Shown here: one piece after another, positions 6,573 through 51,659 of the stretch
Numbering within the stretch: the first letter of the stretch is position 1
How the letters are laid out: every line of letters begins with the position of its first letter
NCBI RefSeq assembly: GCF_058153355.1
Contig: NZ_CM177019.1
Strand: one strand, 5' to 3'
DNA length: 64,000 nucleotides
Translations under genes and position numbers: made by a program
The notes under the pieces: model-generated
Databases searched by the model: none
Seen by the model: the letters and a program-made list of their open reading frames with translations, nothing else
Told to the model about the DNA's origin: nothing

Positions 6573-6798
6573 CGACTAAAAACCTCTTTGCGTCACATTT
6601 TTACAACAATTATTGCAGAGAAGATTAATGCCATTGGATTGAAGAAAGTGAGGAATGGTTAAACTGGCTAACCCGAATGACGAAAAATTCTGGAAAACAG
6701 CACGCTATTTCGTGAAGTGATTATTTTCGTCCCTAAGGAAACCTCATAGGATGCTCACGGGTGCCTGAGACTTTCTGTTTTCAGGCTAACCGGGAATC

Positions 6799-6846
6799 AG
6801 AAAGACGAAGGCCCCGACCGATATTTCTATCAACCGAGGCCAACGA

Positions 6847-6858
<12 letters not shown>
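6799..6858 (-). ncRNA. sokB: SokB antisense RNA (antitoxin of hokB); ends approximate
   Basis: antisense to mokB start region; candidate promoter TTGCCG-N17-TAACAT on minus strand inside mokB 5' end; hairpin and U-rich tail; coordinates inferred. Confidence 0.35.
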
Positions 6859-7054
<196 letters not shown>

Positions 7055-7125
7055 GGGCAAGCGCGGGGATTTTCCCCGCGCATCTGACTAGCGGATTCAG
7101 TTTCTCATGGCACCCCTTTTACACT

Positions 7126-7299
7126 TCAGTTAGTGCATGTTTTTTTCGATGCACTAATAGAACCATCATTACAGACAAATTTGCCGCCTGCCGTACAGTG
7201 TGAGATCCCCCCTTTCGAACCAGAACAGGGTTTGCGCCCGGCATCGGCATAAAAGGAAACAAGCGCTCCCATAACCAAGATAAGTGCCAATTTTTTCAT
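7126..7299 (-). CDS. ydcA: small secreted protein YdcA
   Basis: 57-codon ORF MKKLALILVMGALVSFYADAGRKPCSG... with signal peptide, translated by hand; between cybB and hokB. Confidence 0.8.
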   Translation of the reverse strand: MKKLALILVMGALVSFYADAGRKPCSGSKGGISHCTAGGKFVCNDGSISASKKTCTN

Positions 7300-7543
7300 A
7301 TAACCTCCATGATTTATCGAATCTTATGTTCGATTTGAACGTTATACGCTGGTTTATTTTGATACCGTTGATGAGATCAAAGATCGGGTGAATTGATTAA
7401 AGATAAGCCAGATGGACATATGGACAAGGATTATGGTTTTATTTGTCATACAAATAAATATAATAGGCGCTTCCGATGTAGGCCCGTATTCTTCGCCTGT
7501 ACCACGGGTCGGTTTTAGTACAGGCGTTTTCTTTAAATATCCT

Positions 7544-40961: not shown

Positions 40962-40990
40962 ATGCTCTGGATAAGGATTATCCAATTCTA

Positions 40991-41099
40991 AAAAAAAGCC
41001 CGAACGACTGTTCGGGCTTGTCTTCTTATATGTTGGAAAATCAGTGGCAATGCAATGGCCCAACAGAAAATAAAATCTGTGACAATAAAGGCATATAAC
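40991..41099 (-). ncRNA. micC: MicC sRNA (Hfq-dependent repressor of ompC/ompD)
   Basis: minus strand reads GTTATATGCCTTTATTGTCACAGATTTTATTTTCTGTTGGGCCATTGCATTGCC...GCCCGAACAGTCGTTCGGGCTTTTTTTT, recognised as MicC; terminator shared with ydbK. Confidence 0.85.
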
Positions 41100-41326
41100 C
41101 CGCGCAGAATAACGTATAGCAAATTAAAAGTATAATTTTTATTTTGTATGTATTATCTTCGATACATTCACCAGACTTATTATCATTTCAGAGGAATTAT
41201 TTGATTAAGGTTTTACTTAAGGCGTAACAAATGATATTTATCGGCTAACTGAACTTCTCCTTTAGGATGTTTTCATTCCCCGAAATGGGGATAAAAGGCA
41301 AATAAAATAACTAAAGGATTTATTCA

Positions 41327-42460
41327 ATGAAAAGCAAAGTACTGGCACTTTTAATTCCTGCCCTGCTCGCCGCAGGTGCTGCACATGCAGCCGAAGTTTA
41401 TAATAAAGACGGCAACAAATTAGATCTGTATGGCAAAGTTGATGGCCTGCATTATTTTTCTGATAATTCAGCGAAAGATGGCGACCAGAGCTATGCGCGT
41501 CTGGGTTTTAAAGGCGAAACCCAAATTAACGATCAACTTACTGGCTACGGTCAATGGGAATACAATATTCAGGCAAACAACACTGAATCTTCAAAAAACC
41601 AGTCATGGACCCGTCTGGCATTTGCCGGACTGAAATTTGCAGATTACGGTTCTTTCGATTACGGACGTAATTATGGCGTAATGTACGACATCGAAGGCTG
41701 GACCGATATGCTGCCTGAATTTGGCGGTGACTCTTATACCAATGCAGACAACTTTATGACTGGTCGTGCCAATGGCGTCGCGACTTATCGTAACACTGAT
41801 TTCTTCGGTCTGGTAAATGGTCTGAACTTCGCGGTGCAGTATCAAGGTAACAACGAAGGAGCCAGTAATGGTCAGGAAGGCACCAACAACGGACGTGATG
41901 TTCGCCATGAAAACGGTGACGGCTGGGGTCTTTCCACAACATATGATTTAGGCATGGGCTTTAGCGCTGGTGCGGCATACACCTCTTCTGACCGCACCAA
42001 TGACCAGGTTAACCATACTGCGGCTGGTGGTGATAAAGCAGACGCGTGGACTGCTGGGCTAAAATACGATGCTAACAATATTTACCTGGCAACCATGTAT
42101 TCAGAAACGCGTAATATGACCCCGTTTGGCGACAGCGATTATGCTGTTGCAAACAAAACCCAGAACTTTGAAGTCACTGCACAGTACCAGTTTGATTTTG
42201 GTCTGCGTCCGGCAGTCTCTTTCCTGATGTCTAAAGGCCGTGACCTGCACGCTACCGGTGGTGCAGACAACCCGGCAGGTGTTGATGATAAAGATCTTGT
42301 AAAATACGCCGATGTTGGCGCGACTTACTATTTCAATAAAAATATGTCCACTTATGTTGACTATAAAATCAACCTGTTGGATGAAGATGACAGTTTCTAT
42401 GCTGCTAACGGCATCTCTACCGATGATATTGTCGCTTTAGGTCTGGTTTATCAGTTCTAA
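41327..42460 (+). CDS. ompN: outer membrane porin N
   Basis: 377-aa ORF with signal peptide and porin C-terminus (...VALGLVYQF); matches OmpN. Confidence 0.95.
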
Positions 42461-42468
42461 ATCCTCCT

Positions 42469-42493
42469 GCCCGCTGTTATGGCGGGCTTTTTC
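42469..42493 (+). terminator. rho-independent terminator of ompN
   Basis: GCCCGC-TGTTATG-GCGGGC hairpin followed by TTTTTC. Confidence 0.65.
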
Positions 42494-42519
42494 TGCTTAT
42501 TCTTCCTCCTTTGATCTAA

Positions 42520-43035
<516 letters not shown>

Positions 43036-43042
43036 CACTAAC

Positions 43043-43067
43043 GCCCGCACATTGCTGCGGGCTTTTT
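43043..43067 (+). terminator. rho-independent terminator of uspF
   Basis: GCCCGCA-CATTGC-TGCGGGC hairpin followed by TTTTT. Confidence 0.65.
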
Positions 43068-43123
43068 GATTCATTTCGCAAATGTGCTGACATTTTCCCC
43101 TCTAATCATTACAATTTAAATTT

Positions 43124-43735
43124 ATGAATTATGCATTGATAATCGCTATTATAATATCGTTCCCCTGTGCATTATTATCAGTTTTTCTGGTATTAAAAGA
43201 CTGGGCGCTAATAGGAGATGCAATGAACCACGCAATGTTTCCTGGCATAGTTCTAGCCTGGATTATAGGTATGCCGCTGGGAATTGGTGCATTTATTGTA
43301 GGACTGTCTTGTGCAATTGCAACTGGCTATCTGAAAGATAATAGCATCATAAAGAAAGATACCATTATAGGTATCGTTTTTTCAGGAATTTTTGTCTTGA
43401 CTATCAACAGGCACAAGTCAGCGGATTACAGATATCATTATTACATTACGGTTTACTCTGCATGGTATCGCCTACCATTTTTGCCACATTAAAAGCAGTC
43501 GGAATTATTCTGTCTATATACTATTAATAGCTCCAGGGTCTATTGCTGTCCTCATCACGCATCGCTTTCATAAGACATTACTTATCGCCGTAACGATATC
43601 AATAACAATATCAGGCGTATGGTTATTATATTTTCTCGACAGAGCCCCAGCGCCGACAATCGTCCTCTTATTTGCTGTAGCATTTCTTTTCGCGCTTATA
43701 ATAATCAATTTTCGGAAACAATAATCTCAACAGTA
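43124..43735 (+). pseudogene. decayed ABC-3 family (Mn/Zn/Fe) transporter permease gene, frameshifted and internally truncated
   Basis: frame of 43124..43492 encodes an ABC-3 permease-like N-terminus (DAMNHAMFPGIVLAW, TIIGIVFSGIFVLTI); permease-like C-terminus (LLIAPGSIAVLITHRFHKTLLIAVTISITISGVWLLYFLDRAPAPTIVLLFAVAFLF) continues in another frame to stop at 43733..43735; AT-rich. Confidence 0.5.
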
Positions 43736-44991
43736 GAATAAAGAGGCAAATCAATCATTACATATATAAGATGGTGCTAATATTGCACCGCCTTTAAATT
43801 GAACTTTATCCTTTCACCCTTACACAATTTAAGGAATGCAGATGACTATTTTATCAGCACCCAGCCTTTTTCCTGGTAATCGAAAACTTGAAAATCATTA
43901 ACTCTAAGAAATTCTGCCAAATCGTTGAAATTACTTTAAATTAGACTCGAACAAATCAACCCCTGATGGGGCTTTTACTTATCCATTTAATCGGGTATAT
44001 ATCGACCTCCATCTGCCCGCCTCAGATTCGTACCTGGTGGAGGTCTTTTTTCGTTACCTCTTTCCCCCTTTAGTTCAGTATAAAATCATCAAACTAATGC
44101 TGTTCACACTATTTACCTCCAGCATTCTATATAAATAATAGAAATAAAAACCCCAATACATAGTGCATTGGCATGACCAAACATCAATGCCATTATACTC
44201 GCCTCTGTTAAATACTCGCTAGTTAATATGATAGGCACGCATGATATAACAATCCATATGCTAATACATAAATACACCAGTATTTTTCTCATAGTCAGTC
44301 CCTGTGATTAACAATCAAGGCATAGTTAAGCATATTTCACATTCAAACGTAAACATTATTAATAACATTATGTCAATCGAACTGACATCACGATTCAAGC
44401 CCTCTTCAGACTGAAGGCTAGAGCAGCGTAGAACATTTCAAAACAATACACTGAAAAAATACTTGAACAAAAAACTTAATTCTTTTTTATTGTGAACTTT
44501 AGTAATTTTGTCATGCAACTCTTTATTACATTTAGGCCTATCTTATTTCATGGCAACGCAAATACAGGACCATTTCTTGTGCTATGGATAAGTAATAAGC
44601 TAGTTACATCTTATTAAGAGAACCATTTTCACATATCAAAATATCATCACCACCCACAATGAATTAAGTATTTTTCTTATTCTTTAGATTAGATACGTAA
44701 TGAATCCCTAACTCCATTCGGGTGTCATGGCTCTTTCATTTGAAATACATTCATATCCAATGTAATATTTCTATGCGCAAATATAACTACCGACCATACT
44801 CATCATTTATTACAGAGAATTATTTTATTCACCGAAAAGTTTCACAAAATATCCCCTGATAGAAAACTAAAAAACACTGCATAATATCGCTATTCTGGCA
44901 CTTGCGAAAAATTATATTCTGCACCTGTTGTAGCGTTCTATTTCTCCGCCTGGCAACGAATGCACAATGTCCGCCACAGTTTCTGTTCTAA

Positions 44992-45309
44992 TTTCTTCCT
45001 GTGTTACCGCATCCTGTACGGGTAGCGCAACACCAGCATGCTAAGCAAGGCTTTCCCATCAGATTTCACTACGACTATTTGGGAGCGAGATGGAATGCAG
45101 CAGTAAAACGTGCTGGTATTCGCCGCCGTAATCCGTACCATACGCGACATACTTTTGCCTGCTGGCTGTTGACGGCAGGAGCGAACCCGGCATTTATAGC
45201 CAGCCAGATGGGGCATGAAACTGCGCAGATGGTGTATGAAATTTACGGTATGTGGATTGATGACATGAACGACGAACAGGTAGCTATGTTGAATGCGCGG
45301 TTATCGTAG
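44992..45309 (+). pseudogene. 3' fragment of a tyrosine-recombinase (Rac-type prophage integrase) gene
   Basis: open frame encodes only the integrase C-terminal catalytic region (RRNPYHTRHTFACWLLTAGANPAFIASQMGHETAQMVYEIYGMW) with no N-terminal domains; directly upstream of ttcA where K-12 carries intR. Confidence 0.7.
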
Positions 45310-45360
45310 TTGCAAAGTTTGCCCCCAATTTGCCCCATTTAGTACCAGAGAACTGAAATA

Positions 45361-46296
45361 ATGCAAGAAAATCAAAAGAATACGAAGAAAGAGATATACA
45401 ATCTGAACAAATTACAAAAACGTCTGCGTCGTAACGTGGGCGAAGCCATTGCTGACTTCAATATGATTGAAGAAGGCGATCGCATCATGGTTTGCCTCTC
45501 CGGGGGTAAAGACAGCTATACCATGCTGGAGATTCTGCGCAATTTGCAGCAAAGCGCGCCAATCAATTTTTCGCTGGTGGCTGTTAACCTCGATCAAAAG
45601 CAACCGGGCTTCCCGGAACACGTTCTGCCCGAGTATCTTGAAAAGCTGGGCATTGAGTACAAGATTGTGGAAGAGAACACTTACGGTATCGTGAAAGAGA
45701 AGATTCCGGAGGGCAAAACCACTTGCTCACTGTGTTCTCGTCTTCGTCGCGGAATTCTTTACCGTACCGCAACGGAACTGGGAGCGACGAAGATCGCGCT
45801 GGGTCACCATCGTGACGATATCCTGCAAACGTTGTTCTTAAATATGTTCTACGGCGGCAAGATGAAAGGTATGCCTCCGAAACTGATGAGCGATGATGGC
45901 AAACATATTGTGATTCGTCCGCTGGCCTACTGCCGCGAGAAAGATATTCAGCGCTTTGCCGATGCAAAAGCGTTCCCGATTATTCCTTGCAACCTGTGCG
46001 GTTCACAGCCTAACCTGCAACGTCAGGTGATTGCTGACATGTTGCGTGACTGGGATAAACGTTATCCGGGGCGTATCGAGACGATGTTCAGCGCGATGCA
46101 GAATGTGGTGCCGTCGCATCTGTGCGATACCAACCTGTTCGATTTCAAAGGCATTACCCACGGTTCTGAAGTGGTTAACGGGGGTGATCTGGCGTTTGAT
46201 CGCGAAGAGATCCCTCTACAACCGGCGGGTTGGCAGCCTGAAGAAGATGAAAATCAGTTGGATGAGTTACGACTGAATGTGGTGGAAGTGAAATAA
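45361..46296 (+). CDS. ttcA: tRNA-cytidine(32) 2-sulfurtransferase
   Basis: 311-aa ORF with PP-loop SGGKDS and CxxC motifs; matches TtcA. Confidence 0.95.
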
Positions 46297-48059: not shown

Positions 48060-48181
48060 AAAAAAAAGCCGACTCATCAAAGTCGGCGTCGTACGAATCA
48101 ATTGTGCTATGCAGTAATTCAAAAAAGGAAGTAAGACAATATGGAGCGCAACGCCCATCGCTTGACGTTGCATTCACCTGC
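48060..48181 (-). ncRNA. fnrS: FnrS sRNA (FNR-activated, Hfq-dependent)
   Basis: minus strand reads GCAGGTGAATGCAACGTCAAGCGATGGGCGTTGCGCTCCATATTGTCTTACTTCCTTTTTTGAATTACTGCATAGCAC...GCCGACTTTGATGAGTCGGCTTTTTTTT, recognised as FnrS with intrinsic terminator. Confidence 0.85.
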
Positions 48182-51557: not shown

Positions 51558-51651
51558 ACCGGCGCAGAGGAGACCATGCCGGATTTAAGACGCGGATGCA
51601 CTGCTGTGTGTACTGTAGAGTCTGGCGGATGTCGACAGACTCTATTTTTTT
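51558..51651 (+). ncRNA. mcaS: McaS sRNA (IsrA)
   Basis: ACCGGCGCAGAGGAGACCATGCCGGATTTAAGACGCGGATGCACTGCTGTGTGTACTGTAGAGTCTGGCGGATGTCGACAGACTCTATTTTTTT recognised as McaS; terminal hairpin plus T7; between smrA and abgR. Confidence 0.7.
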
Positions 51652-51659
51652 ATGCAGTT

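Follow-up and report, generated by a model that had tools for sequence, protein, structure and literature searches.

Two terminator-like hairpins between uspF and ttcA of Escherichia coli are probably the remains of a hokD/hokW-like toxin gene

Introduction

Inactivated hok loci in the chromosome of Escherichia coli K-12, among them hokA, hokC and hokE, were reportedly described by Pedersen and Gerdes in 1999. Degenerate hok copies are a recognised class, and a recent catalogue that filtered them out put coding sequences with internal stops at 2.6% and those shorter than 40 amino acids at 5.1% (bioRxiv 10.1101/2025.08.07.668861). For hok of R1 it was found that the processed, active mRNA has its 3' end in the last stem-loop, and that weakening this stem by mutation abolishes the processed form, probably via 3'-5' exoRNases (PMC9841398). 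A second point of reference is the 23-kb cryptic prophage Rac, which in K-12 lies between ttcA and uspF (PMC6379469). The known small RNA EcsR1 belongs to the adjacent ompN-uspF spacer and is located outside the locus considered here (PMC4350180), and in the literature on the uspF-ttcA interval we found no report of a small RNA or of a hok relic.

Here we analyze two hairpins in this interval, located in a stretch of 64,000 nucleotides of contig NZ_CM177019.1 that is referred to as the window. A preliminary description had presented them as plus-strand structures resembling terminators, with no plus-strand gene upstream, and had proposed that they mark the 3' end of an uncharacterized small RNA, or else a surviving prophage terminator or att-adjacent structure. 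As detailed below, both were probably inherited from a dead toxin gene of the hokD/hokW type that is encoded on the minus strand and is now an inert relic.

Results

Sequence and location of the hairpins

The two hairpins and their T-runs are present as previously described. On the plus strand, hairpin 1 reads CCCC TGAT GGGG (43960-43971), a stem of 4 bp that is followed by CTTTTACTT, with the tail CTTTTACT at 43972-43979. The arms of hairpin 2 are GACCTCCA (44004-44011) and TGGAGGTC (44038-44045); with one T.G pair included, its stem reaches 10 bp, encloses a loop of 22 nt and is directly followed by TTTTTT (44046-44051). RefSeq places no annotated feature under either hairpin. The window is from E. 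coli, and the surroundings of the hairpins are arranged as follows:

41327-42460, plus strand: ompN
ending at 43035, plus strand: uspF
43108-45078, 31-39% GC: AT-rich block, read as a highly deleted lambdoid prophage remnant, occupying the Rac/ttcA site
43124-43724, plus strand: frameshifted pseudogene of a sitD-like metal ABC transporter permease (RefSeq annotation, three-frame translation)
between the permease pseudogene and the DUF1627 fragment: annotation-free stretch of ~1.2 kb
44838-44939, minus strand: C-terminal fragment of a Ren-like exclusion protein (PHROG 142, E=4.4e-7, profile positions 80-114 of 116)
44951-45066, minus strand: fragment of a DUF1627 phage protein (RefSeq pseudogene in a 99.9%-identical locus; PHROG 11856, E=6.6e-11)
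45079-45309, plus strand: 3' fragment of a Rac-type integrase gene (intR) that adjoins ttcA (RefSeq annotation)
45361-46296, plus strand: ttcA
after ttcA in the local order, minus strand: dbpA

Of 5426 complete E. coli genomes, 1043 carry the whole block with 95-100% identity, E2348/69, Nissle 1917, ATCC 25922 and ST131 strains among them. In ~4,400 genomes, including K-12, the match is restricted to 43000-43107 and about 45078-45400.

Homology to hokD and hokW

A nucleotide profile was built from three hokD/hokW loci, and the whole window was scanned with nhmmer with all filters off. Two significant matches were obtained. The intact hokB locus at 6748-7145, serving as a positive control for the same profile, was recovered at full length (E=2e-14), and the second match was to the minus strand, from 44058 to 43962 (E=2.7e-10; envelope 44078-43947; positions 273-373 of the 462 in the model), spanning both hairpins. 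A sensitive blastn search with 43850-44150 returned the 1043 full-length copies and in addition a 56-nt match under hokD in about 135 other genomes. This match covers 44003-44058, with 84% identity to annotated hokD and E=4e-6 in 28 Gb. In the hokD locus that was fetched the gene is opposite in strand to the query, so that the homology lies on the minus strand of the window. The phage and plasmid collections contain the same 56-nt core at 80-84% identity: 33 phage records and the majority of 411 plasmid records match it, in genes named hok, mok, MokW or 'host killer'.

The homology is also evident from the translation. The minus strand encodes VTKKDLHQVRI*GGQMEVDIY, with GGQMEVDIYPIKW following the internal stop, and aligns with VTRKDLCEVRIRTGQTEVAVF of HokD; BLASTP counted 13 identities in 21 positions to HokD residues 24-44. 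HOK_GEF was the sole Pfam family matched, at 15.3-17.8 bits (E=0.015-0.0026) and thus under its gathering score of 22, the match being confined to profile positions 19-36 of 42, and MokW-like host killing was the sole PHROG match at the relic (E=0.012). Nucleotide homology to hok genes, one trait by which a Hok/Gef locus can be recognized, is hence present, with the limit that significant homology spans just ~100 nt. The features that we assign to the relic and its immediate surroundings are:

43962-44058, minus strand: relic of a Hok/Gef type I toxin gene (hokD/hokW-like), 3' half through the stop position into the post-stop hairpin (nhmmer, blastn, BLASTP)
44046-44051, minus strand: AAA AAA (Lys-Lys), of which the T6 'tail' is the complement; AGG AAA (Arg-Lys) in hokD
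44004-44011 and 44038-44045, minus strand: arms of hairpin 2 as codons, GAC CTC CA(C) for D-L-H and (A)TG GAG GTC for M-E-V
44022-44024, minus strand: in-frame TGA, CGA (Arg) in hokD, common to five aligned E. coli copies
43949-43984, minus strand: extended hairpin 1, a 14-bp two-part stem (outer GGAUAAGU/AUUUGUUC, inner AGCCCC/GGGGUU) that contains 43960-43971
44113-44292, minus strand: hydrophobic ORF of 59 codons directly upstream of the relic, in the place of the hok leader and Sok, absent from RefSeq

Lesions and missing parts

The reading frame is inactivated by the in-frame TGA together with a 4-nt deletion that follows 3' of it, before the stop region, and a conserved cysteine is replaced by histidine. 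Both the internal stop and the T6 run are kept in all five diverse E. coli copies that were aligned. Upstream of 44058 no significant similarity to the N-terminus, leader or promoter of hokD was detected (z about 0.7 versus shuffles), and an N-terminal membrane helix is not recognizable in the relic. The 5' end of any ancestral transcript is likewise unrecognizable, which leaves the long-range tac/fbi pairing of the 5' and 3' ends without an assignable partner. Stop codons occur in all three minus-strand frames across 44120-43960, leaving no mok frame. A search with the Rfam sok family (RF01794) over 42400-45500 gave nothing at E<=10, while sokB at 6759-6910 in the same window scored 114 bits; the other Rfam matches at E<=10 in 42400-45500 were sub-threshold noise, such as STnc420 with 26 bits against a cut-off of 70. 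Since an intact ORF of ~50 codons, an N-terminal membrane helix and a Pfam score passing 22 bits are all missing, we regard the locus as a relic rather than as a functional member of the Hok family.

Note that GGAGG followed by GTG is found at 44120-44105, and that a short frame reads VNSISLMILY. The arrangement may be the ghost of a hok start, a reading without statistical support. The 59-codon ORF has homologues in near-identical E. coli copies only and matches no Pfam or PHROG family. One apparently divergent homologue with 67% identity was discarded, as it turned out to come from the same locus of an assembly in which single-base gaps abound. The ORF is probably not a real gene.

An intact hok of the relic lineage was searched for in several collections. 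The phage and plasmid collections yielded no more than the 56-nt core at 80-84% identity, apart from near-identical copies of the whole stretch in two records that are filed under plasmids. There was no match at 90-95% identity in 5426 E. coli genomes, viral contigs held hokD/hokW types only, and one genome for each of 100,044 species gave 0 matches. As no intact hok of this lineage was found, we infer its full-length ancestor.

Hairpin 2 as an inverted repeat of hok codons

Both arms of hairpin 2 consist of toxin-gene codons when the minus strand is read. The equivalent arms of hokD/hokW, GACCTCTG/CGGAGGTC, encode K-D-L-C and T-E-V and are nearly invariant across more than 120 viral contigs, from which it follows that the inverted repeat is a legacy of the gene. 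Two stem pairs differ from hokD: pair 8, which is G-C there, is A-U in the relic, and pair 7, which is U.G there, is C-G. In hokB the corresponding arms are not complementary as judged by eye, and the repeat appears to be specific to the hokD/hokW clade, with almost no variation there. We read hairpin 2 as an inverted repeat built into the hok coding sequence, with the K-D-L codons pairing with the T/M-E-V codons. The T6 run arose where hokD has AGG AAA, and the terminator-like look is therefore specific to the relic lineage.

Folding was compared with 200 dinucleotide shuffles for each element. On the plus strand, hairpin 2 reached -16.9 kcal/mol (z=-3.05), with 2 of 200 shuffles as stable. 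Hairpin 1 gave -7.5 kcal/mol (z=-1.5; 14 of 200), not above chance, and the region 43900-44060 as a whole -30.1 kcal/mol (z=-0.47; 63 of 200) on the plus strand and -36.5 kcal/mol (z=-0.88; 33 of 200) on the minus strand. The expectation from the preliminary description that the structures would fold better than shuffled controls was thus borne out for hairpin 2, but neither for hairpin 1 on that strand nor for the whole region.

The stability of hairpin 2, with a 10-bp stem and six T directly after it, would be compatible with a plus-strand intrinsic terminator, accidental or selected, that insulates the AT-rich relic or ttcA from transcription coming out of the region of uspF and the sitD-like pseudogene. 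The view that there is no plus-strand gene upstream proved incorrect, as the frameshifted permease pseudogene on this strand ends at 43724, and this too would suit a terminator. Stem and T6 are moreover unchanged in the five aligned E. coli copies, an invariance that carries no weight because the compared copies are 98-100% identical. However, the loop of 22 nt far exceeds the 3-8 nt typical of terminators, and on the plus strand neither hairpin was picked up by a consensus terminator scan. A U-tract does stand right after both stems, but neither hairpin combines a GC-rich stem of 5 bp or more with a loop of 3-8 nt, the stem of hairpin 1 having 4 bp and the loop of hairpin 2 22-26 nt. Furthermore, two hairpins further upstream are more terminator-like than hairpin 2, namely the canonical terminator of uspF itself at 43043-43062 and a tailed hairpin at 43772-43790, past the stop of the permease pseudogene. 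As the hok codons fully account for the stem and the T-run, we consider a plus-strand terminator unlikely.

A further possibility is that the inverted repeats of the hairpins arose by chance in AT-rich junk DNA and share no origin with any gene. In Markov-simulated sequence, motifs of the hairpin 2 type, defined as a perfect 8-bp inverted repeat with a loop of at most 30 nt and a T-rich tail, occurred about 2.4 times per 64 kb, both strands counted, so that hairpin 2 alone is not very rare. The unremarkable fold of the whole region and the z of -1.5 for hairpin 1 on the plus strand fit this explanation as well. On the other hand, the hok homology, which is significant and specific to one strand, accounts for the two arms as well as for loop and T-run, and hokD/hokW contain the same repeat. 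We regard a chance origin as extremely unlikely.

Hairpin 1 as a probable counterpart of the hok post-stop stem-loop

Inheritance from the hok gene can be extended to hairpin 1, albeit with a different kind of evidence. Hairpin 1 is situated just past a TAA that aligns with the stop codon of hokD, and both hokD and the hokB of the same window have a GC-rich hairpin 8-10 nt after the stop codon. A stable stem-loop just 3' of the stop, another trait of Hok/Gef loci, is accordingly found here, the equivalence being positional only. In its extended minus-strand form (43984 to 43949) it reaches -14.8 kcal/mol (z=-3.63), and none of 200 shuffles was as stable. The similarity of the 3' flank to hok is modest (z 2.5-3.8), and the sequence of the stem differs. 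By position and weak flank similarity hairpin 1 would then be the counterpart of the hok post-stop stem-loop, the remnant of a structure that, in active hok mRNAs, makes up the 3' end of the processed transcript and protects it. When viral contigs were scanned for hairpin 1, a single one matched.

Strains differ at one base pair of this hairpin, 43960/43971 (alignment columns 171 and 160). In minus-strand terms, 31 genomes have C-G, 758 have C.A and 254 have U-A, adding up to the 1043 carriers, among which the fourth combination is absent; the window and E2348/69 are of the C-G type. The plus-strand equivalents are C-G, U.G and U-A, and pairing is possible in all of them. By a rough estimate that allows for all predicted pairs, 2 of ~8 polymorphic sites would fall on a single predicted pair with a probability of about 0.02. 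Both changes are GC-to-AT transitions, which a decaying pseudogene is expected to accumulate, and C.A, the most frequent state, weakens the minus-strand stem. The variation could be a hint of residual selection on structure, and we treat it as a curiosity. It is the sole reason to suppose that the relic is not inert and that hairpin 1 is selected within a short RNA still being made, be it from the plus strand or from the hok 3' UTR, which we judge very unlikely.

The same alternation of C-G and U-A bears on the question whether the minus-strand hairpins form the 3' end of an RNA that is still expressed, either the mRNA of the 59-codon ORF or a small RNA derived from the 3' part of hok, with hairpin 1 as the stabilizing element. 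The significant stability of the extended hairpin agrees with this, as does the terminator scan, in which hairpin 1 was called on the minus strand only. A promoter-like site was found at 44106-44077 on the minus strand, and the stop of the 59-codon ORF overlaps the GGAGG just upstream of the relic. Yet 758 of 1043 genomes have a mismatch at the minus-strand stem pair, several strains have a broken outer stem, and as a U-tract the minus-strand tail GAUUUGUUCG is poor. AT-rich DNA commonly contains promoter-like sites, of which 15 were found versus 8.8 expected, and the 59-codon ORF lacks both a family match and homologues beyond its near-identical E. coli copies. An RNA of this kind is quite unlikely in our view.

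The surrounding prophage remnant

The nin region of lambda has ren at its start. In phages, hok is found within the nin region, flanked by the replication genes on one side and on the other by Q, with which it is co-directional. In the window, the Ren-like and DUF1627 fragments are located upstream of the hok relic on the same, minus, strand. The sitD-like pseudogene has ~68% DNA identity to sitD of plasmids and lambda-like phages, and sitABCD is found aboard lambda-like phages. The intR 3' fragment shares 96-99% identity with intR of Rac-carrying strains. Taken in order, the fragments of int, DUF1627, ren, hok and sitD are colinear with a lambdoid prophage, and phage gene fragments in lambdoid order thus occur at a known att site. 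Judged by these fragments, the hairpins sit inside a ~2-kb lambdoid prophage remnant at the Rac/ttcA integration site, and the earlier suggestion of a surviving piece of prophage holds. An att-adjacent structure finds no place here, as the attR/ttcC sequence is absent altogether from the remnant. The hairpin stretch has no similarity to the ends of K-12 Rac, with which the remnant has nothing in common except the 3' end of the integrase.

Discussion

The two hairpins are probably part of an ordinary pseudogene relic and not a new RNA element. In place of the plus-strand terminators or small-RNA 3' end that had been proposed, they lie inside a minus-strand stretch homologous to hokD/hokW, and the T-run is the complement of two lysine codons. 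The homology, its strand and the inactivating lesions are established by the results above; the lack of a present function, and the survival of the hairpins through nothing but incomplete decay, are what we infer.

The biological importance of the finding is small. It adds an unannotated degenerate hok copy and a Ren-like fragment to a prophage remnant that is present in about a fifth of sequenced E. coli. It also advises caution, as a hairpin with a T-run in a 'non-coding' AT-rich tract can be a coding relic read on the wrong strand, and the built-in inverted repeats of hok genes mimic terminators. Finally, the relic illustrates how a type I toxin locus decays: the antitoxin and the membrane helix go first, and the 3' core stays recognizable.

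The resemblance to known systems is graded. With intrinsic terminators, hairpin 2 shares a GC-rich stem with six U at once after it on the plus strand. It differs in its loop of 22-26 nt versus 3-8 nt, hairpin 1 differs in its 4-bp stem, no intact gene lies upstream, and the sequence of the hairpins is explained by coding homology on the opposite strand. Like the inactivated hok loci of K-12, the relic is a chromosomal or prophage copy that has lost its function, but those loci can still be recognized at full length with their Sok, hokB/sokB of the window being an example, whereas the relic keeps the 3' half only. The remnant has the integration site at the 5' end of ttcA and the integrase 3' end in common with Rac of K-12 (PMC6379469); unlike the 23 kb of Rac it measures ~2 kb, attR/ttcC are missing, and no other sequence is shared. 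The closest relatives are hokD and hokW themselves. From these the relic is set apart by the internal TGA, the 4-nt deletion, the exchange of Cys for His, the absence of a recognizable N-terminal membrane helix, mok frame, leader or Sok, a different post-stop stem sequence and a T6 run that occurs only in the relic lineage. Nevertheless, the 56-nt core coding for VT(R/K)KDL..VRI..GQ.EV is still 82-84% identical at the DNA level, the inverted repeat GACCTC...GAGGTC is shared, a stem-loop again follows directly on the stop, and the orientation and the nin-region neighbourhood inside a lambdoid prophage are the same.

Remnants of prophage genes around the hok relic

Four features of the prophage remnant lie outside the hok relic, the decayed hokD/hokW-like toxin gene that holds both hairpins of the preliminary description:

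43124-43724, plus strand: diverged sitD-like permease pseudogene, about 68% DNA identity to sitD
43772-43790, both strands: palindromic hairpin TGGTGC-TAATATT-GCACCG, called terminator-like on each strand
44113-44292, minus strand: hydrophobic 59-codon ORF, two-helix, with the sequence MRKILVYLCISIWIV..., immediately upstream of the hok relic
44838-44939, minus strand: C-terminal piece of a Ren-like exclusion protein, without annotation (match to PHROG 142 at E=4.4e-7)

The sitD-like pseudogene carries frameshifts and an internal loss. Lambda_2E9 and Perceval are examples of lambda-like phages with sitABCD. As the pseudogene starts only 17 bp past the breakpoint of K-12 homology, sitABC-like genes and attR have been deleted. 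The palindrome at 43772-43790 sits about 50 bp past the sitD-like stop codon, and as the old terminator of this gene it is a better candidate than the hairpins at 43960-43971 and 44004-44045.

The 59-codon ORF finds its homologues exclusively in near-identical E. coli copies; it matches no family, and RefSeq has no annotation at this position. Note that its stop codon overlaps a GGAGG motif. The Ren-like fragment adjoins a stretch that matches DUF1627-type phage proteins, with partial overlap in another frame.

The same locus in another assembly (GCA_002230435.1, NLPC01000004.1, 2700-3600) shows many single-base gaps with respect to the window, several of them within homopolymer runs. These gaps look like sequencing errors, and as a result of them the protein database lists small proteins that are only spuriously 'divergent'.

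Variation in hairpin 1

The stem pair 43960/43971 of hairpin 1 (columns 171 and 160 in the alignment of E. coli copies) varies across the 1043 complete genomes that carry the whole AT-rich block. Read on the minus strand it is C.A in 758 of these, U-A in 254 and C-G in 31, and the U.G state is found in none of the 1043; on the plus strand the same three states read U.G, U-A and C-G, respectively. This variation may reflect a compensatory change, or else two GC-to-AT decay events.

Known toxin-antitoxin and small RNA loci

The positive control for the hokD/hokW profile was an apparently intact type I toxin-antitoxin locus, which the profile matched at full length (E=2e-14):

6748-7145, plus strand: hokB/mokB/sokB-type locus

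Its hok ORF (6905-7054) encodes MKHNPLVVCLLIICITILTFTLLTRQTLYELRFRDGDKEVAALMACTSR, and 6759-6910 matches Rfam sok with 114 bits.

A weak Rfam match to the Salmonella sRNA STnc420 (44445-44495, plus strand; 26 bits, where the gathering score is 70; E=0.036) falls in an AT-rich unannotated stretch and is probably due to chance. The 126-nt sRNA EcsR1 of E. coli has its gene in the spacer between ompN and uspF (PMC4350180). That spacer corresponds to 42461-42600, and EcsR1 was not among the Rfam matches within the 64-kb window. Four sRNAs were identified at the Rfam gathering threshold, each in its expected K-12 neighbourhood:

7470-7533, plus strand: RydC
40982-41102, minus strand: MicC
48064-48181, minus strand: FnrS
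51558-51653, plus strand: McaS
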